64,000 nt of DNA, from the NCBI RefSeq assembly GCF_045037415.1, contig NZ_CP173438.1; one strand, given 5' to 3'. The stretch comes from Escherichia coli (GTDB lineage Bacteria > Pseudomonadota > Gammaproteobacteria > Enterobacterales > Enterobacteriaceae). Below the pieces are notes generated by a model, which worked only from the letters and a program-made list of their open reading frames with translations, made no database searches and was not told the origin of the DNA. Positions 16,344 through 35,551 of this stretch are shown here, piece by piece. Each line of letters starts with the position of its first letter. The first letter of the stretch is position 1. Both the position numbers and the translations under genes were made by a program.

Positions 16344-16503
16344 AACGAATGCCACCGCCACCCGGGCGGGAATCCGCAGAACGCCCACCGCAGCGGGAGC
16401 CGTCAGCAGCAGTGTCGCTGTCGTGCTGACAACGACCGGCAAAGGCCTGAGTTGAAGCTACCAGAGACAACAAAACGAACAGTGCAGCAAATGCTTTTTT
16501 CAT
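16342..16503 (-). CDS. Possible small secreted peptide (53 aa)
   Basis: Signal-peptide-like N-terminus MKKAFAALFVLLSLVASTQAFA; GC-rich low-complexity mature part with two Cys; weak RBS. Confidence 0.3.
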   Translation of the reverse strand: MKKAFAALFVLLSLVASTQAFAGRCQHDSDTAADGSRCGGRSADSRPGGGGIR

Positions 16504-16575
16504 TGTGAAATTTCCATCTATAAGCCACCTCAATGTGGCGTCAATGAGTGTAGCACTGACTTTTGTTTCGTCCAC

Positions 16576-16597
16576 AAAAAAGCCCGCGCTGCGGGCT
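16576..16597 (-). terminator. Rho-independent terminator of the reverse cassette
   Basis: GCCCGC-GCT-GCGGGC hairpin followed by a U-run on the minus strand, directly after the 16602 stop. Confidence 0.7.
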
Positions 16598-16601
16598 TCT
16601 A

Positions 16602-17234
16602 TTAATGCAGTTTATCTTTGCTTATAACCAGTAGTCTGTGGGTATGCACATCTTTATCACTGCCCCAACAGAAATCAGCCCACTGGCTATAGAAATCATC
16701 CCATGATGTCATGAAGCTAAGAGGTCTATCTTCTTCAGAGCCATCTGAAACGTATACATTATATCCTGGGGTGTTTATAGCCCAAGAAATCATTCTTTCC
16801 CAGAATCTTCTCCCATCGATTGTTTGTTGCTCATCAGATACAACGATCGCATATTGCTCTAGGAAGAACTGAAAAAAAATCTGAGGCAAACCATGAACAG
16901 CACGGTCATGAATAACATTAGGCGTACGCCATACCATGATCTGCGTACATGTTCTTTTGGCTTCGACGATATCTTCCCGAAAGATTAACTTAACCGCATA
17001 CACCGTTTCTGGAGTATCGCTGGTAGTAATCATTCTGTAATGATCGCCATTACAAGATTTTACAAGGCGATAACCATAAGGTGTTGTGAATCCCGGAAGA
17101 ACGAAATCAACCACACCTTTCGCTAAGTAGCTTTCGGTGTGACTAGTGTTCTTCTCAGACATGTTCAGTTTTCTATCGAAATCTGCTTCTGGGATAATGT
17201 ATGGCATCGCTTTTCTTGTTGTATTTGTTCTCAT
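16602..17234 (-). CDS. Uncharacterised cargo protein, 210 aa
   Basis: Strong RBS GGGAGG 5 nt before ATG; own sigma70-like promoter and operator upstream; no family recognised; AT-rich. Confidence 0.75.
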   Translation of the reverse strand: MRTNTTRKAMPYIIPEADFDRKLNMSEKNTSHTESYLAKGVVDFVLPGFTTPYGYRLVKSCNGDHYRMITTSDTPETVYAVKLIFREDIVEAKRTCTQIMVWRTPNVIHDRAVHGLPQIFFQFFLEQYAIVVSDEQQTIDGRRFWERMISWAINTPGYNVYVSDGSEEDRPLSFMTSWDDFYSQWADFCWGSDKDVHTHRLLVISKDKLH

Positions 17235-17293
17235 TTCGTCCTCCCATGTTTGGCTACAGGACGCGTTTTGAAGGGAAGATTAAAAATGCTTTC

Positions 17294-17308
17294 TTACCCT
17301 TGAGGTAA
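17294..17308. promoter_or_regulatory. Operator-like palindrome TTACC-N5-GGTAA (copy 1) overlapping the start region of the 16602-17234 gene
   Basis: Perfect 5-bp inverted repeat with 5-bp spacer; abuts the predicted -10. Confidence 0.5.
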
Positions 17309-17336
17309 TAGTACGCTATTCACCCCCAGTCTGCAA
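17308..17336 (-). promoter_or_regulatory. Sigma70-like promoter for the 210-aa gene
   Basis: Minus-strand TTGCAG-N17-TACTAT, about 75 nt upstream of the ATG. Confidence 0.45.
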
Positions 17337-17380
17337 TCTGTACAGAATTATTTAAAGGCACATCCCTGTGCCGCCGCCCG

Positions 17381-18037
17381 TCAGAAGAACCCTGCCTTGT
17401 CGTTGATGTACTCCGCGTGCGTCTGGATATCACGCAGGCATTTGCTCACACCAACGATGTAGCAGAACATGGTGGTCAGCTCCGCCGCCGCGCCCGATAC
17501 GTCGTGCCCGTCGTCCTGTAACTGGTTCAGCAGATTCATCAGCAGTGAGTTCTCCGTCAGGCCGAGAACACCAGACGGCGAGTGAATCAGGCTGCGGTAG
17601 CCGGGCTTCAGTGGGGCACTGTATTCTTTTTTGTCTTCCAGCTTGATCGCCTCCATAATGGCGGGCATGAAGCCTGACAAGACCTTCTCCACTTTTGTTT
17701 CTTGTTGTCTTAAACGTTTCTCGCATTCAATGAAGTAGCGTCGCACCTGGCGACCTTTTTCGTTACGCTCGACCATCGCCAGCTCTTTGGCTGTATCAAG
17801 GGTGAGGTGGTACTCTTTGCGGTTGTGGCCGCCTCTACCAGATGTTTGCTTTCCCAAATTGGAAAGCAAAATATAGTCTTGATTTTCAATGAATTCGTAT
17901 TCTGATATGCGATTTGTAATCCATGCTGCAAACACCTTTTTAACACCTAAAAAAGCGTGCAGATCGCGGGCATTACAAAGTAGGGCTGTTTCGTTAGATA
18001 TAGTGCCGTTGAATACGGGGATGAGTTGAGCGTTCAT
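17381..18037 (-). CDS. Antirepressor-like protein: AntA-type N-terminal domain plus C-terminal domain paralogous to the small SOS-controlled protein
   Basis: GGAG RBS; N-terminal motif [27 protein letters not shown] typical of AntA/AntB antirepressor domains; C-terminal 70 aa about 40% identical to the 18357-18614 product. Confidence 0.65.
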
Positions 18038-18196
18038 GATGGCGTCTCCACTTAGCGAATTACATCACCACCGCTGAGAACCAATCAGATGGTGGTGAAC
18101 TGAACGGAGTTGGTCTTACCGGCCTAAGTGGTACCGGCGTCCTTTCGGACCCCCATTCAGCCCACCATAATTCTGGCATGACTGTGCTATACGCAT

Positions 18197-18218
18197 AAAA
18201 AAACCACGTCTGGCGTGG
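18197..18218 (-). terminator. Putative rho-independent terminator between the small SOS-controlled gene and the antirepressor gene
   Basis: CCACG-N5-CGTGG hairpin followed by seven U on the minus strand; short stem. Confidence 0.4.
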
Positions 18219-18308
18219 TATGCGCCACTTAGTAATCCGGGAGAACCAATCCCGGCACTGGATTTTGCCAGTGCCCGATTACTATGGCACAAGAGGAGTG
18301 CGATGTAA

Positions 18309-18327
18309 ATTTACCGCAAAGGTAAAT
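18309..18327. promoter_or_regulatory. Operator-like palindrome ATTTACC-N5-GGTAAAT (copy 2)
   Basis: 7-bp inverted repeat with 5-bp spacer, same core as copies 1 and 3. Confidence 0.45.
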
Positions 18328-18356
18328 ATAAGCACTCCATTTGGTAATTTCAAACC

Positions 18357-18614
18357 TTATCTGGTTTGTTTTCGTAATTGTTCGGCACAATAGTCGAGAT
18401 GTGTTTGCAGATCCTGCATAGACATCTGTGAGCTGGTGACGTAGTTAATCAGTGCAGTCAGTTCGGCAAGTGGGCCATCGACATTAAATCCATCCTTATC
18501 GAGATCCCGGAGTAATTTCATCAAGTGCGATCCCTCCACCAGTGACCTGACGCCTCCCGGCGTGTGAATCCTTTCGGTAAATCCGTCTTCCAGTGGATAG
18601 TGATACTGCTGCAT
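18357..18614 (-). CDS. Small SOS-box-controlled protein (about 85 aa), candidate SOS-inducible antirepressor
   Basis: GGAGAA RBS before ATG at 18614; LexA box 19 nt upstream; homologous to C-terminus of the adjacent AntA-like protein; ORF track extends to 18737 but upstream part covers promoter and operator. Confidence 0.6.
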   Translation of the reverse strand: MQQYHYPLEDGFTERIHTPGGVRSLVEGSHLMKLLRDLDKDGFNVDGPLAELTALINYVTSSQMSMQDLQTHLDYCAEQLRKQTR

Positions 18615-18633
18615 CTTATCTTCTCCATGCAAT

Positions 18634-18653
18634 AACTGTATATTTATACAGTA
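18634..18653. promoter_or_regulatory. LexA (SOS) box
   Basis: AACTGTATATTTATACAGTA matches the E. coli LexA consensus TACTGTATATATATACAGTA at 18 of 20 positions, with CTGT-N8-ACAG intact. Confidence 0.75.
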
Positions 18654-18689
18654 GCAAATAATTTGTTTGCTATCCAGCACGTTTTGCAA

Positions 18690-18706
18690 ATTACCTGAAA
18701 GGTAAT
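18690..18706. promoter_or_regulatory. Operator-like palindrome ATTACC-N5-GGTAAT (copy 3) upstream of the LexA box
   Basis: Perfect 6-bp inverted repeat with 5-bp spacer. Confidence 0.5.
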
Positions 18707-18809
18707 ATCTATTCGTATTTACAGCCTTTCTATCCATATGTGGTTTTCCAGGTAATAGAATAACCAGATATGCGGCGCAACGGGTGCTGCGACTATCTGG
18801 AGATTTAAC

Positions 18810-21461
18810 ATGACGGTTTCAACCGAAGTTGACCACAACGAATACACCGGTAACGGAGCTACGACATCATTTCCGTATACCTTCCGTATTTTCAAAAAAT
18901 CCGACCTGGTTGTTCAGGTGTCTGACCTGAACGGGAACGTAACAGAATTGGTTCTGGATACTGACTACACAGTAACCAATGCTGGAGGATATAATGGCGG
19001 TAATGTAATTCTGTCGAAGGCGTTGGCTAACGGTTATCATATTTCTATATCACGAGAGCTCCCGGTTACGCAGGATACTGATTTGCGTAATCAGGGTAAG
19101 TTCTTCGCTGAGGTACATGAAGACGCGTTCGATAAACTGACAATGCTTATTCAAAAGTGTTTTTCATGGATGAGGTTAGCACTTATAAAACCAAGCATTC
19201 TGGCTAACTATTATGATGCAAAAAATAATAAGATATCAAATCTAGCAAATGCCACTGACAGAAACGATGCTGTCAATAAAGGTTATGTTGATGATCTTTT
19301 TACTGGAGGTGTAACGCCTACATCTAACAGCGCTAAAAACGATATTTTTACAAATCACCAAAGAAAGATTGTAGCTACGATGCCGCTTCTTTTTCCTGAA
19401 TATGATGCGATTATGGCTGCTAACCCGTCAGCAACTTATATGTATCCTCAAGGATTCTGCGTTAGCGAAGATTTGATATACATCACTTATCCATTTGAGC
19501 CTAAACAGACGAATAATGTCGTCGCAGTATTTAACATATCTGGTATTTATCAAGGTTATTTCTATGTTCAGGCTGGCGGCCCAGGCTTCGCTGCTGAAGG
19601 AATCGTGGTTACGTCAGACTATGGCCCCAAAAAAATGTTTGTTGGTCACACAAACGGAATACTGCGTGAATTTAATATGGAGGGGGCATTATACGGAAGC
19701 AATCTGCCTCTTGTACAAAACCATGATGTTGGATTATTCAACCAGTTCAGCTACAGAAGAGGTATATGGCTCGTTGAGCAGAATGCGCCAGAAGTAGGAC
19801 AGAAAATCACAAGAACTGTACTTGCAGTGTTCGACAGTGGTTTCAATCGCCTGTCAACTATAACGCTGCCGTTACATGATGTTGGGTATGTAACTAAAAG
19901 CACCTCACCTTATGCGCCTTATTTCAACAAGCGTCAGGGTATTGCGGTAGGTGATAACTACTTTGTCTGCGGCTATGGCGGCTTCATAGCTGATGGGGCA
20001 GGAAGCGCAGGATATAACGAATATCAGGGCAGCAAAGTTTTTAACCCTGACGGTACAAAGCGAACTGAATCAATGCTTCATCCTCAGGCCATGATGGATT
20101 TAATGAAAGCCGCAGGATTGAACGTCACTCGCATAGAAAATGAAGGCGTTTGTGTTTCTCAGGATGGAAAATCCATTTATTCACTTTACATTCATCAGGA
20201 AAGAACTGGCTCTGAACCTTACAATTCAGGTTTGGTTATTTTCGAAGATTTCTCCACTGATAAAGATGCTATCGATTTTACACCTGCATCCAGGCTTTAC
20301 CGCGGATTTGATATCGATCACGCGAGCATTGGGGTATATCCCCGTAGTGCGAAGGGGATTGTTAACCCTGTAGATGGTACGTTGTTCACTAACATGACTG
20401 AAATTCTTCGCTATATGCAGGAGATGAGTCAGAAGGCATTTAATTTTTACACAGGGACTGTCAGCATTGCTGATATATCTGGCGTGGCAATCCCTTCCAG
20501 CACATATGTTGAAATACTGAATGCGAATAATCAGACTTTTATAGTCAACTATTATTCATCTGATAGTGGCATTAGTTATTTGGTTGCAACTAATCCTTCT
20601 GGTGACTTTGTATTTGTGCGCCAGCGACCGGCACAGTGGGCATCTAACTTAACCATTCAGCAAAACGCAGATCCTGATACAAACCAATTAAACCGCATCA
20701 CTGCATCATCATATGCCGGTGCAACTACAAACTCTCAGAAAATATTGGTCCTTGACCAGCAGGCTACAGCTAGCGCAAATAGCTTGGTATTGGGCGGTAG
20801 TTCTTCTGTGTTTAGGTCTGCCACCACGGTGGATATTGCATGCAACAGCGACCCGACAGCATTGGGAGGAACCATACGCTGGCGGTTTTATGATACAGGT
20901 CTTCGCCCGTTTGCTGACAATACCTATAATTTTGGTCAGGCATCGTTTCGTATTAAAGACGCCTACTTTGCAAATGCCCCAACCGTTTCATCAGATGCCA
21001 CGCTGAAAACCAATCCCGAGGCAATATCAGATTTAAGTGAAATGCTTTCTTCTGATAGAGACAGCATTCTTGATGCCTGGGGCGATATTTCTGTTGTGGC
21101 GTATCGATGGCTCGACGCTATATCCATGAAGGGCGATGGTGCCAGATGGCATTTTGGCGTCATGGCTCAGCAGGTAAGGGATGTATTCTTGGCGCACGGA
21201 ATTGATGGAACCAGATTTGGCCTTCTTTGCTATGACGAGTGGGATGATATTTTTGAGCCGGTAATCGCGACTAAAGAGATTACCGATACGTCTGGTGAGT
21301 TGGTCACCGTCGAATATGACACCGGAGAACAGAGGCTGGTTAAAAAAGCGGGTAGTTCATGGGGTATACGGCCTGACCAGTGCGCTTGGCTTGAGGCTGC
21401 ATATCAGCGCCGTCGATGCGATCGTATTGAAGAGCGACTCGAACTATTGGAATCAAAATAA
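18810..21461 (+). CDS. Tailspike protein with C-terminal intramolecular chaperone (peptidase S74-like) domain, 883 aa
   Basis: RBS CTGGAG; conserved-looking N-terminal virion-anchor region; C-terminal block (RWHFGVMAQQVRDVF...) resembles the self-cleaving chaperone domain of endosialidases and tail fibres. Confidence 0.75.
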   Translation: MTVSTEVDHNEYTGNGATTSFPYTFRIFKKSDLVVQVSDLNGNVTELVLDTDYTVTNAGGYNGGNVILSKALANGYHISISRELPVTQDTDLRNQGKFFAEVHEDAFDKLTMLIQKCFSWMRLALIKPSILANYYDAKNNKISNLANATDRNDAVNKGYVDDLFTGGVTPTSNSAKNDIFTNHQRKIVATMPLLFPEYDAIMAANPSATYMYPQGFCVSEDLIYITYPFEPKQTNNVVAVFNISGIYQGYFYVQAGGPGFAAEGIVVTSDYGPKKMFVGHTNGILREFNMEGALYGSNLPLVQNHDVGLFNQFSYRRGIWLVEQNAPEVGQKITRTVLAVFDSGFNRLSTITLPLHDVGYVTKSTSPYAPYFNKRQGIAVGDNYFVCGYGGFIADGAGSAGYNEYQGSKVFNPDGTKRTESMLHPQAMMDLMKAAGLNVTRIENEGVCVSQDGKSIYSLYIHQERTGSEPYNSGLVIFEDFSTDKDAIDFTPASRLYRGFDIDHASIGVYPRSAKGIVNPVDGTLFTNMTEILRYMQEMSQKAFNFYTGTVSIADISGVAIPSSTYVEILNANNQTFIVNYYSSDSGISYLVATNPSGDFVFVRQRPAQWASNLTIQQNADPDTNQLNRITASSYAGATTNSQKILVLDQQATASANSLVLGGSSSVFRSATTVDIACNSDPTALGGTIRWRFYDTGLRPFADNTYNFGQASFRIKDAYFANAPTVSSDATLKTNPEAISDLSEMLSSDRDSILDAWGDISVVAYRWLDAISMKGDGARWHFGVMAQQVRDVFLAHGIDGTRFGLLCYDEWDDIFEPVIATKEITDTSGELVTVEYDTGEQRLVKKAGSSWGIRPDQCAWLEAAYQRRRCDRIEERLELLESK

Positions 21462-27765: not shown

Positions 27766-31378
<3,613 letters not shown>

Positions 31379-31549
31379 TACCACTTTTACTCCGTTTTAT
31401 TCACGGGACACTGCCTGGATATTATGGCGAGCAATATTGGCAGATGTCCAACTATGCCAGAAAAGGGGGAAAAAAACTGCTGGAGCTTGCGATTTACAGG
31501 TGAATTGAAAAACGCCAGCGGCAGAGCTGGCGCTTTAACTACGGGGGCA

Positions 31550-32188: not shown

Positions 32189-33243
<1,055 letters not shown>

Positions 33244-33549: not shown

Positions 33550-34176
33550 ATGAAGATCGTGGAAGTCAAACACCCACTCGTCAAACACAAGCTGGGACTG
33601 ATGCGTGAGCAAGATATCAGCACCAAGCGCTTTCGCGAACTCGCTTCCGAAGTGGGTAGCCTGCTGACTTACGAAGCGACCGCCGACCTCGAAACGGAAA
33701 AAGTAACTATCGAAGGCTGGAACGGCCCGGTAGAAATCGACCAGATCAAAGGTAAGAAAATTACCGTTGTGCCAATTCTGCGTGCGGGTCTGGGGATGAT
33801 GGACGGTGTGCTGGAAAACGTTCCGAGCGCGCGCATCAGCGTCGTCGGTATGTACCGTAATGAAGAAACGCTGGAGCCGGTACCGTACTTCCAGAAACTG
33901 GTTTCTAACATCGATGAGCGTATGGCGCTGATCGTTGACCCAATGCTGGCAACCGGTGGTTCCGTTATCGCGACCATCGACCTGCTGAAAAAAGCGGGCT
34001 GCAGCAGCATCAAAGTTCTGGTGCTGGTAGCTGCACCAGAAGGTATCGCTGCGCTGGAAAAAGCGCACCCGGACGTCGAACTGTATACTGCATCGATTGA
34101 CCAGGGACTGAACGAGCACGGATACATTATTCCGGGCCTCGGCGATGCCGGTGACAAAATCTTTGGTACGAAATAA
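33550..34176 (+). CDS. upp: Uracil phosphoribosyltransferase
   Basis: 208 aa from [14 protein letters not shown]; ORF track start is upstream in frame. Confidence 0.95.
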
Positions 34177-34191
34177 AGAATAAAAATAATT

Positions 34192-34221
34192 AAAGCCGAC
34201 TTTAAGAGTCGGCTTTTTTTT
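34192..34221 (+). terminator. Hairpin terminator/attenuator between upp and uraA
   Basis: AAAGCCGAC-N8-GTCGGCTTT followed by T-run. Confidence 0.7.
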
Positions 34222-34261
34222 GAGTAAAGCGCCTATAACACATAATACAGAGGATAATACT

Positions 34262-35551
34262 ATGACGCGCCGTGCTATCGGGGTGAGTGAAAGACCGCCA
34301 CTTTTACAGACAATCCCGCTTAGTTTGCAACATTTGTTCGCCATGTTTGGTGCAACCGTCCTGGTGCCCGTCTTATTTCATATTAACCCGGCGACTGTAC
34401 TGTTATTTAACGGTATAGGAACACTGCTGTATCTCTTCATCTGTAAAGGGAAAATTCCGGCTTATCTTGGTTCCAGCTTTGCCTTTATTTCACCGGTATT
34501 GTTACTGTTGCCGTTGGGGTATGAAGTCGCGCTGGGCGGCTTTATTATGTGCGGCGTGCTGTTCTGCCTGGTTTCTTTTATCGTGAAGAAAGCGGGGACC
34601 GGCTGGCTGGACGTGCTGTTTCCACCTGCGGCAATGGGCGCAATCGTTGCCGTCATCGGTCTGGAGCTGGCGGGCGTAGCTGCCGGTATGGCGGGTTTAC
34701 TCCCGGCTGAAGGGCAAACGCCAGACTCCAAAACCATCATCATCTCTATTACCACCCTGGCGGTCACGGTTTTAGGTTCCGTGCTGTTTCGTGGTTTCCT
34801 GGCAATTATCCCGATTTTAATTGGCGTGCTGGTGGGGTACGCGCTCTCTTTCGCAATGGGAATTGTCGATACCACGCCGATTATTAATGCTCACTGGTTT
34901 GCGCTGCCGACCCTCTATACGCCGCGCTTCGAGTGGTTTGCCATTCTGACTATTCTGCCAGCGGCGTTAGTGGTTATTGCCGAACACGTAGGGCACCTGG
35001 TAGTAACGGCTAATATCGTCAAAAAAGATCTGCTGCGCGATCCAGGTCTGCACCGTTCGATGTTTGCTAACGGCTTGTCGACCGTGATCTCCGGCTTCTT
35101 TGGCTCCACGCCAAACACCACTTACGGAGAAAACATTGGCGTGATGGCGATCACCCGTGTTTACAGTACCTGGGTTATCGGCGGTGCGGCGATTTTCGCT
35201 ATCCTGCTTTCCTGCGTCGGTAAACTGGCTGCTGCTATCCAGATGATTCCATTGCCGGTGATGGGCGGCGTTTCGCTGCTGCTTTACGGTGTCATCGGTG
35301 CTTCCGGTATTCGTGTGTTGATCGAATCGAAAGTGGATTACAACAAAGCACAGAACCTGATCCTGACTTCCGTGATTTTGATCATCGGCGTCAGTGGCGC
35401 GAAGGTAAACATTGGGGCGGCGGAGCTGAAAGGTATGGCGCTGGCGACCATCGTCGGTATCGGCTTAAGTTTGATCTTCAAACTGATTAGTATGCTGCGC
35501 CCTGAAGAAGTGGTGCTGGACGCAGAAGACGCGGATATAACAGACAAATAA
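34262..35551 (+). CDS. uraA: Uracil:proton symporter
   Basis: 429 aa from [15 protein letters not shown]; NCS2 family. Confidence 0.95.

Follow-up and report, generated by a model that had tools for sequence, protein, structure and literature searches.

What is the function of a 319-nucleotide (nt) spacer that separates two genes of a prophage in Escherichia coli, and does it decide whether the second of these genes is expressed? The spacer occupies positions 18038-18356 of a 64-kb stretch of contig NZ_CP173438.1 (the window, i.e. the whole 64,000 nt that were analysed). It lies between an 85-amino acid (aa) open reading frame (ORF, 18614-18357) and the gene for a 218-aa antirepressor (ant, 18037-17381). 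Both genes are encoded on the minus strand, which is also the functional strand of the spacer. The window originates from an epsilon15/phiV10-like (Uetakevirus) prophage, whose nearest phage is phiv142-3 with 98.6% identity across the cassette. The spacer is very probably a P1/P7-type secondary-immunity (immI) control region, i.e. the same module as the isrK locus of Gifsy-1, here in a Uetakevirus prophage. On the minus strand, the order of its parts is promoter, leader with the boxes a1 and b1, terminator, C4 antisense RNA, boxes a2 and b2 with the ribosome binding site (RBS), and antirepressor gene. The module is a typical member of this known and curated system (P1 immI/Gifsy-1 IsrK) and does not constitute a new kind of system.

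Family identity is the first line of evidence. A preliminary description, made from the letters of the window, had supposed that a small RNA or a leader is encoded here, and the Rfam scan bore this out. In the entire 64-kb window, only two families reach their gathering thresholds, and both lie in the spacer, on one strand and 24 nt apart: isrK (RF01394) with 60.9 bits (gathering 50, model positions 1-77) and C4 antisense RNA (RF01695) with 61.2 bits (gathering 45, full-length model 1-87). Their E-values in the whole-window scan amount to ~1e-9 to 1e-10. A third family, c4-a1b1 (RF03163), overlaps the isrK match at 18287-18234 with 36.2 bits and stays below its gathering threshold of 46.7. An E-value scan of 16500-19500 found no families besides these three, and ARAGORN found no tRNA or tmRNA. 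The impression that the spacer contains more structure than a simple gap proved right as well: compared to shuffles, the 250-nt leader has a z-score of -4.3 and the C4 segment of -5.5 (minimum free energy, MFE, -41.2 kcal/mol). The fold of the C4 segment agrees with the Rfam model. It comprises a tRNA-like, 17-base pair (bp) acceptor-like stem, which is followed by ACCA.

Because Rfam places isrK and C4 in the spacer, the duplicated block observed previously can be read as a pair of C4 target sites. The repeats are present. They form two short co-linear boxes, not one contiguous block. The plus-strand sequence GAGAACCAATC is an exact 11-mer found at 18076-18086 and again at 18241-18251; estimated from length and 4^11, a stretch of 319 nt should contain ~0.01 such repeats. 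The plus-strand sequence CCACTTAG occurs at 18048-18055 and 18225-18232. The downstream copy has 20 nt between its boxes, the upstream copy 8 nt. Read on the minus strand, the longer repeat provides the a boxes (GAUUGGUUCUC) and the shorter one the b boxes (CUAAGUGG). C4 exposes b' (CCACUUAG) in the loop of its hairpin 2 and a' (AAGACCAA) in a single-stranded junction. In this locus, both b'/b1 and b'/b2 are perfect across 8 nt. The ATG of ant is located at 18037-18035, so that ant begins 10 nt past b2.

Conservation of pairing carries the argument further. Over 14 distinct sequences, the C4 structure comprises 27 pairs with 97% of the cells paired, and 12 pairs show compensatory changes. All five measures were above 500 of 500 shuffles and above every slid control. 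Folding and covariation analysis across related phages revealed that not only the C4 stems but also the boxes covary. In the 13 other loci compared, a' is perfectly complementary to both a1 and a2 over 7-8 nt. For b', 10 of 14 loci have an 8-10-nt complement in both b1 and b2, and every locus has one in at least one of the two boxes; the remaining four loci contain one b copy that is 1 base off b' (b1 in L004, L008 and L013, b2 in L006). Box types vary from locus to locus: a is GGCGU, GGUCU, GAGAC, GGAAC or, in P1, GACAG, and there are many b types. Own-locus box matches beat other-locus matches, as none of 20000 permutations reached the observed sums in any of four comparisons. This means, the covariation across the loci is three-way for a/a' as well as for b/b'. 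In addition, b2 sits on the Shine-Dalgarno (SD) sequence in every locus.

The spacer or recognisable relatives of it were found in 466 of 5426 complete E. coli genomes. Among phages, it or its relatives are present in phiV10, TL-2011b, ZX5, HEMP4, Enterobacter phage Tyrion and Klebsiella, Hafnia and Yersinia phages, in the APSE phages of Hamiltonella as well as in lambdoid Stx and other coliphages. In all 15 fetched non-P1 phage loci, isrK is followed by C4 23-24 nt further on and on the same strand. The downstream gene, where annotated, is Ant, Bro-N, 'Ash' or regulator-type. The spacer RNAs are kept wherever an ant-type gene is kept, and they are lost together with ant in epsilon15. The refuting condition of the preliminary description, loss of the region from related prophages that retain the flanking genes, was not encountered. 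Epsilon15 retains the LexA-controlled small gene with its LexA box (as gp19) but has neither RNA module nor ant. Therefore, the RNA module travels with ant as a cassette.

The leader displays compensatory changes in 6 of the 12 pairs of its hairpins 1 and 2. The alifold scoring of isrK omits the terminator hairpin, which is misaligned by MAFFT; the terminator was folded locus by locus instead. It corresponds to the 3' hairpin of the isrK model and to the terminator-like hairpin with 7-U tail that had been described before, and was found on the minus strand. The other strong hairpins were all recovered with small coordinate corrections (18065-18098, 18237-18255, 18255-18274). The first of them, TCACCACC/GGTGGTGA, folds with -16.5 kcal/mol and a z-score of -3.3. 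On the minus strand it is the a2 hairpin, in which the 3' arm of the C4 stem, UCACCACC, alternatively pairs with the downstream sequence GGUGGUGA. Its equivalent is predicted in all 17 loci. The arms are changed in P1 (CCUGC/GCAGG) and phiP27, and pairing is kept via changes in both strands. An outer helix is predicted to enclose terminator and U-run in the read-through RNA. It lies outside the Rfam isrK model and is predicted in 15 of 17 folded loci including P1; it is absent in L004 and has a weak form in L006. Here too, both strands change and pairing is kept. The outer helix may play a part in processing or stability. Leader hairpin 1 has a loop (GCAAAAUC) that is near-invariant in most loci, and the stem of this hairpin covaries. 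In P1 this loop is GCAAAUUC, and the phiP27/2H10/Ayreon group deviates. No partner sequence was identified for it. Table 1 summarizes the features.

Table 1. Features of the spacer and its flanking genes (window coordinates; minus-strand features in 5' to 3' direction where so written)
Feature	Sequence	Position	Strand	Remarks
Upstream promoter-like site	TTGAAA-17-TATATT	18353-18325	-	10/12 consensus matches; -10 inside palindrome
Operator O2	TTTACC-GCAAA-GGTAAA	18310-18326		abuts -35 of leader promoter, overlaps -10/start of upstream promoter-like site
Leader promoter	TTTACA-17-TGcCATAGT (extended -10)	18309-18281	-	predicted start G18274 = isrK position 1
IsrK-like leader RNA		18197-18274	-	Rfam RF01394; hairpin 1, hairpin 2 (a1 in loop), single-stranded b1, intrinsic terminator
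Hairpin	CACTGG/CCAGTG	18255-18274		
Hairpin	CCGGG/CCCGG	18237-18255		
a1 box	GAUUGGUUCUC	18251-18241	-	loop of leader hairpin 2; extra U vs relatives
b1 box	CUAAGUGG	18232-18225	-	perfect 8-nt complement of C4 b' loop
Outer helix (predicted)	GGCGCAU/AUGCGU	18226-18220 with 18196-18191	-	encloses terminator and U-run in read-through RNA
Intrinsic terminator	ACCACG-CCAGA-CGUGGU	18219-18197	-	stem-loop 18219-18203; final stem base opens 7-T run 18203-18197
C4 antisense RNA		18172-18088	-	Rfam RF01695; mature form predicted ~18166-18091 by alignment to P1 C4
b'	CCACUUAG	18131-18124	-	loop of C4 hairpin 2
a'	AAGACCAA	18117-18110	-	single-stranded junction of C4
a2 hairpin	UCACCACC/GGUGGUGA	18098-18065	-	alternative to C4 stem; a2 in loop
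a2 box	GAUUGGUUCUC	18086-18076	-	loop of a2 hairpin
b2 box	CUAAGUGG	18055-18048	-	overlaps ant Shine-Dalgarno GGAG 18049-18046
ant		17381-18037	-	antirepressor, regulated gene, 218 aa; Pfam AntA PF08346 E 4e-26; PHROG 377 'anti-repressor Ant' E 3e-66
Small gene		18357-18614	-	85 aa; phrog_450 (function-unknown family)

The immI region of phage P1 has the same part order on one strand: annotated operator Oc4, promoters P51a/P51b, a1 b1, a terminator-like hairpin, c4, a2 b2, icd and ant. As in the window, a homologous C4 exposes b' in the loop of hairpin 2 and has a' in its 3' junction, both copies have the a box 5' of the b box, and the terminator-like hairpin is located between b1 and c4. Likewise, the first downstream gene (icd in P1) has b2 next to or across its RBS, and an antirepressor is regulated. 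At the promoter region, P1 has an operator for the main repressor and the window a probable one. The P1 leader reaches the gathering threshold of c4-a1b1, and the isrK model yields only 35.1 bits (below 50). P1 uses other boxes (a UUGACAG, b UGUUAGUG) and hence has a different specificity. The Ant types are unrelated (AntA-domain protein of 218 aa here, Ant1/2 in P1), the host element is an integrated podovirus prophage here and a plasmid prophage in P1, and, unlike in P1, a LexA-controlled gene that is able to read in is located immediately upstream. In P1 and P7, C4 represses ant translation in trans and sets immunity specificity (PMC8198154; Citron and Schuster 1990 as cited there). Full ant repression in P1 requires C4 (PMC8198154), and the C4 precursor is an RNase P substrate (PMC2190699).

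The second characterised relative is the isrK locus of Gifsy-1 (NC_010392). It shares with the window the isrK match, a promoter at leader position 1, a leaky intrinsic terminator and an antirepressor-like gene thereafter. In our analysis, the 'orf45'/STnc1160 segment (34131-34316, minus strand) scores as C4 with 69 bits, 24-25 nt downstream of isrK, and orf45 begins at the AUGGUGG that is conserved in the C4 stem. The box sequences of both loci differ. In the window, the orf45 frame is closed by a stop after 3 codons. Furthermore, the window module lies between the LexA-controlled gene and the tail-fibre region, the Gifsy-1 module next to the Q antiterminator gene. For Gifsy-1, IsrK read-through, a stable processed downstream RNA (STnc1160) and a >100-fold increase of anrP translation by IsrK in trans have been reported (PMC4825925). 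Hfq binding of IsrK, partial read-through and trans-activation of downstream translation are known for Gifsy-1 only (PMC4825925). A third case is APSE of Hamiltonella, where a C4 small RNA (sRNA) and an isrK sRNA are annotated upstream of a Bro-N gene and a'/b' are marked in the APSE-7 record (bioRxiv 10.1101/2020.03.17.996009). In contrast to the window, APSE has other boxes (a of the GAGAC type), another downstream gene family and no LexA-controlled gene annotated upstream.

How is the module transcribed? Its leader promoter has a -10 box that ends 7 nt before 18274, and in the relatives (hexamers read by eye) the distance to isrK model position 1 is 6-7 nt. The promoter aligns with the annotated P1 promoter P1c4/P51b. 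Between terminator and C4, no further promoter is predicted. As the spacer carries its own predicted promoter at isrK position 1, ant expression would not simply be SOS read-through. The upstream promoter-like site, whose -35 box is TTGCAA in phiv142-3, is a candidate for a repressor-controlled promoter comparable to P51a of P1.

The operator copy mentioned in the preliminary description is indeed present as palindrome TTTACC-N5-GGTAAA, which matches the probable operator palindrome of the phage's main repressor. The centre of this copy, O2, is at ~-44 relative to the predicted leader start. The core TTACC-N5-GGTAA occurs in exactly 3 copies in the window (17294-17308, 18311-18325, 18691-18705), each upstream of a minus-strand unit. 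When 1 mismatch is allowed, there are 6 matches compared to 0.92 expected in the window, and no shuffle reached 6. The repressor (immC) region of the prophage lies outside the window, and the complete phiv142-3 genome served for comparison of this region. It contains 11 exact palindrome copies. A tandem array of one exact and 2 near-exact palindromes separates the repressor gene from a small divergent ORF, and 2 exact ones are located just past the repressor gene (clusters 32246-32308 and 33006-33082). In the epsilon15 record, the same palindrome is labelled 'repressor, lysogeny'. Because of this clustering at the phiv142-3 repressor gene and the epsilon15 label, O2 is most likely a site for the main repressor of the prophage, analogous to the C1 operator at immI of P1. 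The entire cassette appears to be wired to this repressor. Weak tandem operator-like sites near 29750 were rejected as immunity region, as they are inside the host ppk gene.

From these data, the following mechanism can be proposed. Minus-strand transcription would start at ~18274 from the promoter beside the main-repressor site, and transcripts of the LexA-controlled small gene would read in. Most transcripts would end at the intrinsic terminator and yield a ~77-nt IsrK-like leader with a1 and b1. From the read-through remainder, C4 (~76 nt) would be excised, a step performed by RNase P in P1. The b' loop and the a' junction of C4 would then pair with b2 and a2 on ant mRNA and cover the SD sequence, so that no Ant is made and the lysogen stays repressed. 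The identical a1/b1 of the leader would be competitors for C4, both in cis and, when the IsrK-like RNA is free, in trans. A surge of leader, e.g. due to SOS read-in or repressor loss, would titrate C4 and allow Ant to be translated. In this scheme, the processing, the block of translation, the titration and the function of the repressor site are adopted from experiments on P1, P7 and Gifsy-1, and family identity, architecture, complementarity, conservation and covariation come from the sequences analysed here. Of the earlier proposal of a regulated termination point, two parts can be retained: a terminator lies between the SOS-controlled gene and ant, and the region would decide on antirepressor production. 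Antitermination as the decisive step could not be upheld. By analogy with the characterised relatives, the decisive step would be the translation block at the ant RBS (P1), relieved by a short leader (Gifsy-1 IsrK). The preliminary description is thus partly supported: it was right in spirit, but missed the antisense logic and the module's own promoter.

Several points weigh against assigning the spacer to the immI type. Promoter, 3' end and processing sites of this element are predictions, and the titration (decoy) step is our own synthesis of the P1 and Gifsy-1 work. The Gifsy-1 authors credit activation to remodelling of a cis-structure and to orf45 translation, and here the orf45 frame stops after 3 codons. 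In P1, icd lies between b2 and ant; here, ant follows b2 directly without an intervening ORF. An icd-like ORF, which is specific to P1/P7 and not to the wider family, is also missing from most non-P1 loci. Finally, the a/a' pairing is weaker here than in every relative, ~3 kcal/mol less favourable per site, as will be discussed below.

Among the alternatives, positive control in the style of Gifsy-1 survives best, and we regard it as possible though rather unlikely to be the main mode. It assumes an inert read-through mRNA that is opened in trans by the leader, with the C4-like segment acting as mRNA or upstream ORF instead of as a free antisense repressor. Direct genetics in the homologous Gifsy-1 locus (PMC4825925) argue for it, and the a'/b' of the C4 segment are possible cis partners of a1/b1. 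The closed orf45 frame, which is missing or replaced by other frames in several loci, and the conservation of the C4 stems through compensatory changes argue against it, and the Gifsy-1 segment itself yields a stable processed RNA (STnc1160). Positive control is, however, largely compatible with a C4-gated antirepressor and no true alternative to it.

Small RNAs also form a second immunity layer gating antirepressor or lytic functions in the immI region of P22 (sar, arc, mnt, ant), in P4 (CI) and in N15. In P4 and N15, a processed RNA with flanking complementary boxes acts by transcription termination. P22 sar is transcribed from the opposite strand as a true cis-antisense RNA, and nothing comparable was seen in the window. 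The comparison with P22, P4 and N15 is based on literature knowledge and on the discussion in PMC4825925 and not on an alignment. Control of the P4 CI/N15 type would mean that the processed RNA binds the flanking boxes and causes early termination, either at the leader terminator or Rho-dependently inside ant. With a processed RNA between two target copies, the first of which is followed by a terminator, the arrangement is similar to P4 seqA-CI-seqC, which the Gifsy-1 authors already noted (PMC4825925). In the MFE structure of the isolated leader, the left terminator arm is engaged by the 3' half of b1, so that C4 binding to b1 could favour the terminator. In P1, the translational block by C4 reportedly causes Rho-dependent termination secondarily, which likewise speaks for this type of control. 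However, the b1/terminator pairing comprises just 4-5 bp and, judged by eye, its conservation was not seen in phiV10 and other loci. A regulated antiterminator based on this weak pairing was, therefore, set aside and is kept only as part of this rival. The location of b2 on the SD sequence in every locus is a signature of translational control, and no Rfam family but C4, isrK and c4-a1b1 matches. All in all, transcriptional control as the main mechanism is unlikely; termination as a secondary effect is possible.

That the spacer encodes a small protein, either by a 39-aa ORF at 18179-18060 or as the 'Ash family protein' annotated there in ZX5 and yong2, is very improbable. ORFs are called there in some records, and a tagged orf45 product was detected in Gifsy-1 (PMC4825925). 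When ORFs across C4 were enumerated in 18 loci, however, frame, length and presence varied by locus, and the substitutions keep base pairs, not codons. For orf45 itself, the nucleotide sequence is conserved and the amino-acid sequence variable, as stated in a review that cites the Gifsy-1 paper (PMC12197685). The coding reading was rejected, since it is the base pairs that are conserved and not the frames and lengths. A plain intergenic gap that contains a terminator, whose presence alone would fit, and repeats and hairpins by chance is practically excluded by the Rfam E-values (~1e-9 or lower), the fold z-scores, the conservation in 466 E. coli genomes and distant phages and the three-way covariation.

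Which proteins are connected to this RNA module? By its AntA domain and its match to the anti-repressor Ant family, the regulated gene can be assigned to the antirepressors. In phage ZX5, overexpression of the gene at the same position, whose product is 39% identical to the phiv142-3/phiV10 antirepressors, lowered lysogeny (PMC9782041). The small gene upstream of the spacer is preceded by a perfect CTGT-N8-ACAG LexA box (18636-18651) and the operator O1 (18690-18706). Its 85-aa product shares 42% identity with the C-terminal 74 aa of the neighbouring Ant and, judged by this similarity, represents the C-terminal domain of Ant as a stand-alone copy. By analogy with Tum of phage 186, it is probably an SOS-inducible antirepressor. 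Neither a scan nor inspection by eye yielded a convincing sigma-70 promoter for the LexA box. As no terminator is predicted between the small gene and the leader, small-gene transcripts should run into the leader.

Some further observations concern the surroundings. Between O1 and the LexA box, a 21-bp palindrome (TAGCAAACAAATTATTTGCTA, 18652-18672) was found, which could be a further protein-binding site. The palindrome copy at 17294-17308 precedes a 210-aa ORF (16602-17234, phrog_1349, a function-unknown family). Divergently from the cassette, 18810-21461 on the plus strand encodes a tail fibre/tailspike of 883 aa, which carries a Peptidase_S74 (endosialidase chaperone) domain at its C-terminus and diverges from its phiv142-3 counterpart past the N-terminus. 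Host ppx and ppk are located at 27766-31384 (minus strand), which places the prophage end before ~27.7 kb.

A peculiarity of this locus is an extra U in both a boxes. Compared to phiv142-3, the spacer exhibits only 3 differences in 319 nt: one is A/C at 18350, and the other two are additional Ts in a1 (18245) and a2 (18080). The a' sequence is unchanged, and a/a' comprises 5 contiguous bp here (7 with one bulged U) compared to 7 perfect ones in 13 relatives. The extra U in a1 is missing from all 112 IMG/VR contigs with the a1 hairpin; in these contigs, readable a' and a2 match a1 with one exception. In the E. coli strains 447, 446 and 463, only a1 contains the extra U. An exact copy of the 319-nt spacer was not found in the 5426 complete E. 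coli genomes, and the metagenome collection yielded no match to the a2 double-U 24-mer. That the same single-base duplication is present at equivalent positions of decoy and target looks non-random. Selection for balance, template switch or a private artefact of this genome are candidate origins of the double U. The same U insertion in a1 and a2, the a1-only insertion in 447, 446 and 463 and the unchanged a' are a hint that decoy and target may be kept matched. Tentatively, it can be hypothesized that the leader a1b1 is a C4 decoy, that the ratio of terminated leader to C4 sets the threshold for Ant and that selection keeps decoy and target matched; we consider this a doubtful idea.

These results have consequences for annotation. 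The examined RefSeq/GenBank records of this phage group contain nothing at the spacer or a spurious small ORF. Instead, the spacer should be labelled with two ncRNA genes (IsrK-like leader and C4) and the target boxes. Protein genes ('Ash family protein', 'hypothetical protein L16') are called across the C4/isrK RNAs in L011 (1466-1579), L008 (1248-1931) and L013 (1082-1741). In some loci, the C4 AUGGUGG frame continues in-frame into ant and enlarges the called ORF.

For the biology of Uetakevirus, the module means that the prophage would have two antirepressor routes, one via the LexA-controlled 85-aa protein, the putative Ant C-terminal-domain copy, and one via full-length Ant gated by C4. 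The box types (a GGU(U)CU, b CUAAGUGG) predict which co-resident or superinfecting phages share the second immunity layer. Moreover, the assignment of Gifsy-1 orf45/STnc1160 to C4 joins two literatures: a 2025 review (PMC12197685) and the Gifsy-1 paper (PMC4825925) treat IsrK and c4 separately. If the decoy hypothesis is true, the extra U would reveal stepwise co-evolution of a sponge and the target that it mimics, and the work on P1 c4 and on Gifsy-1 IsrK would merge into one.

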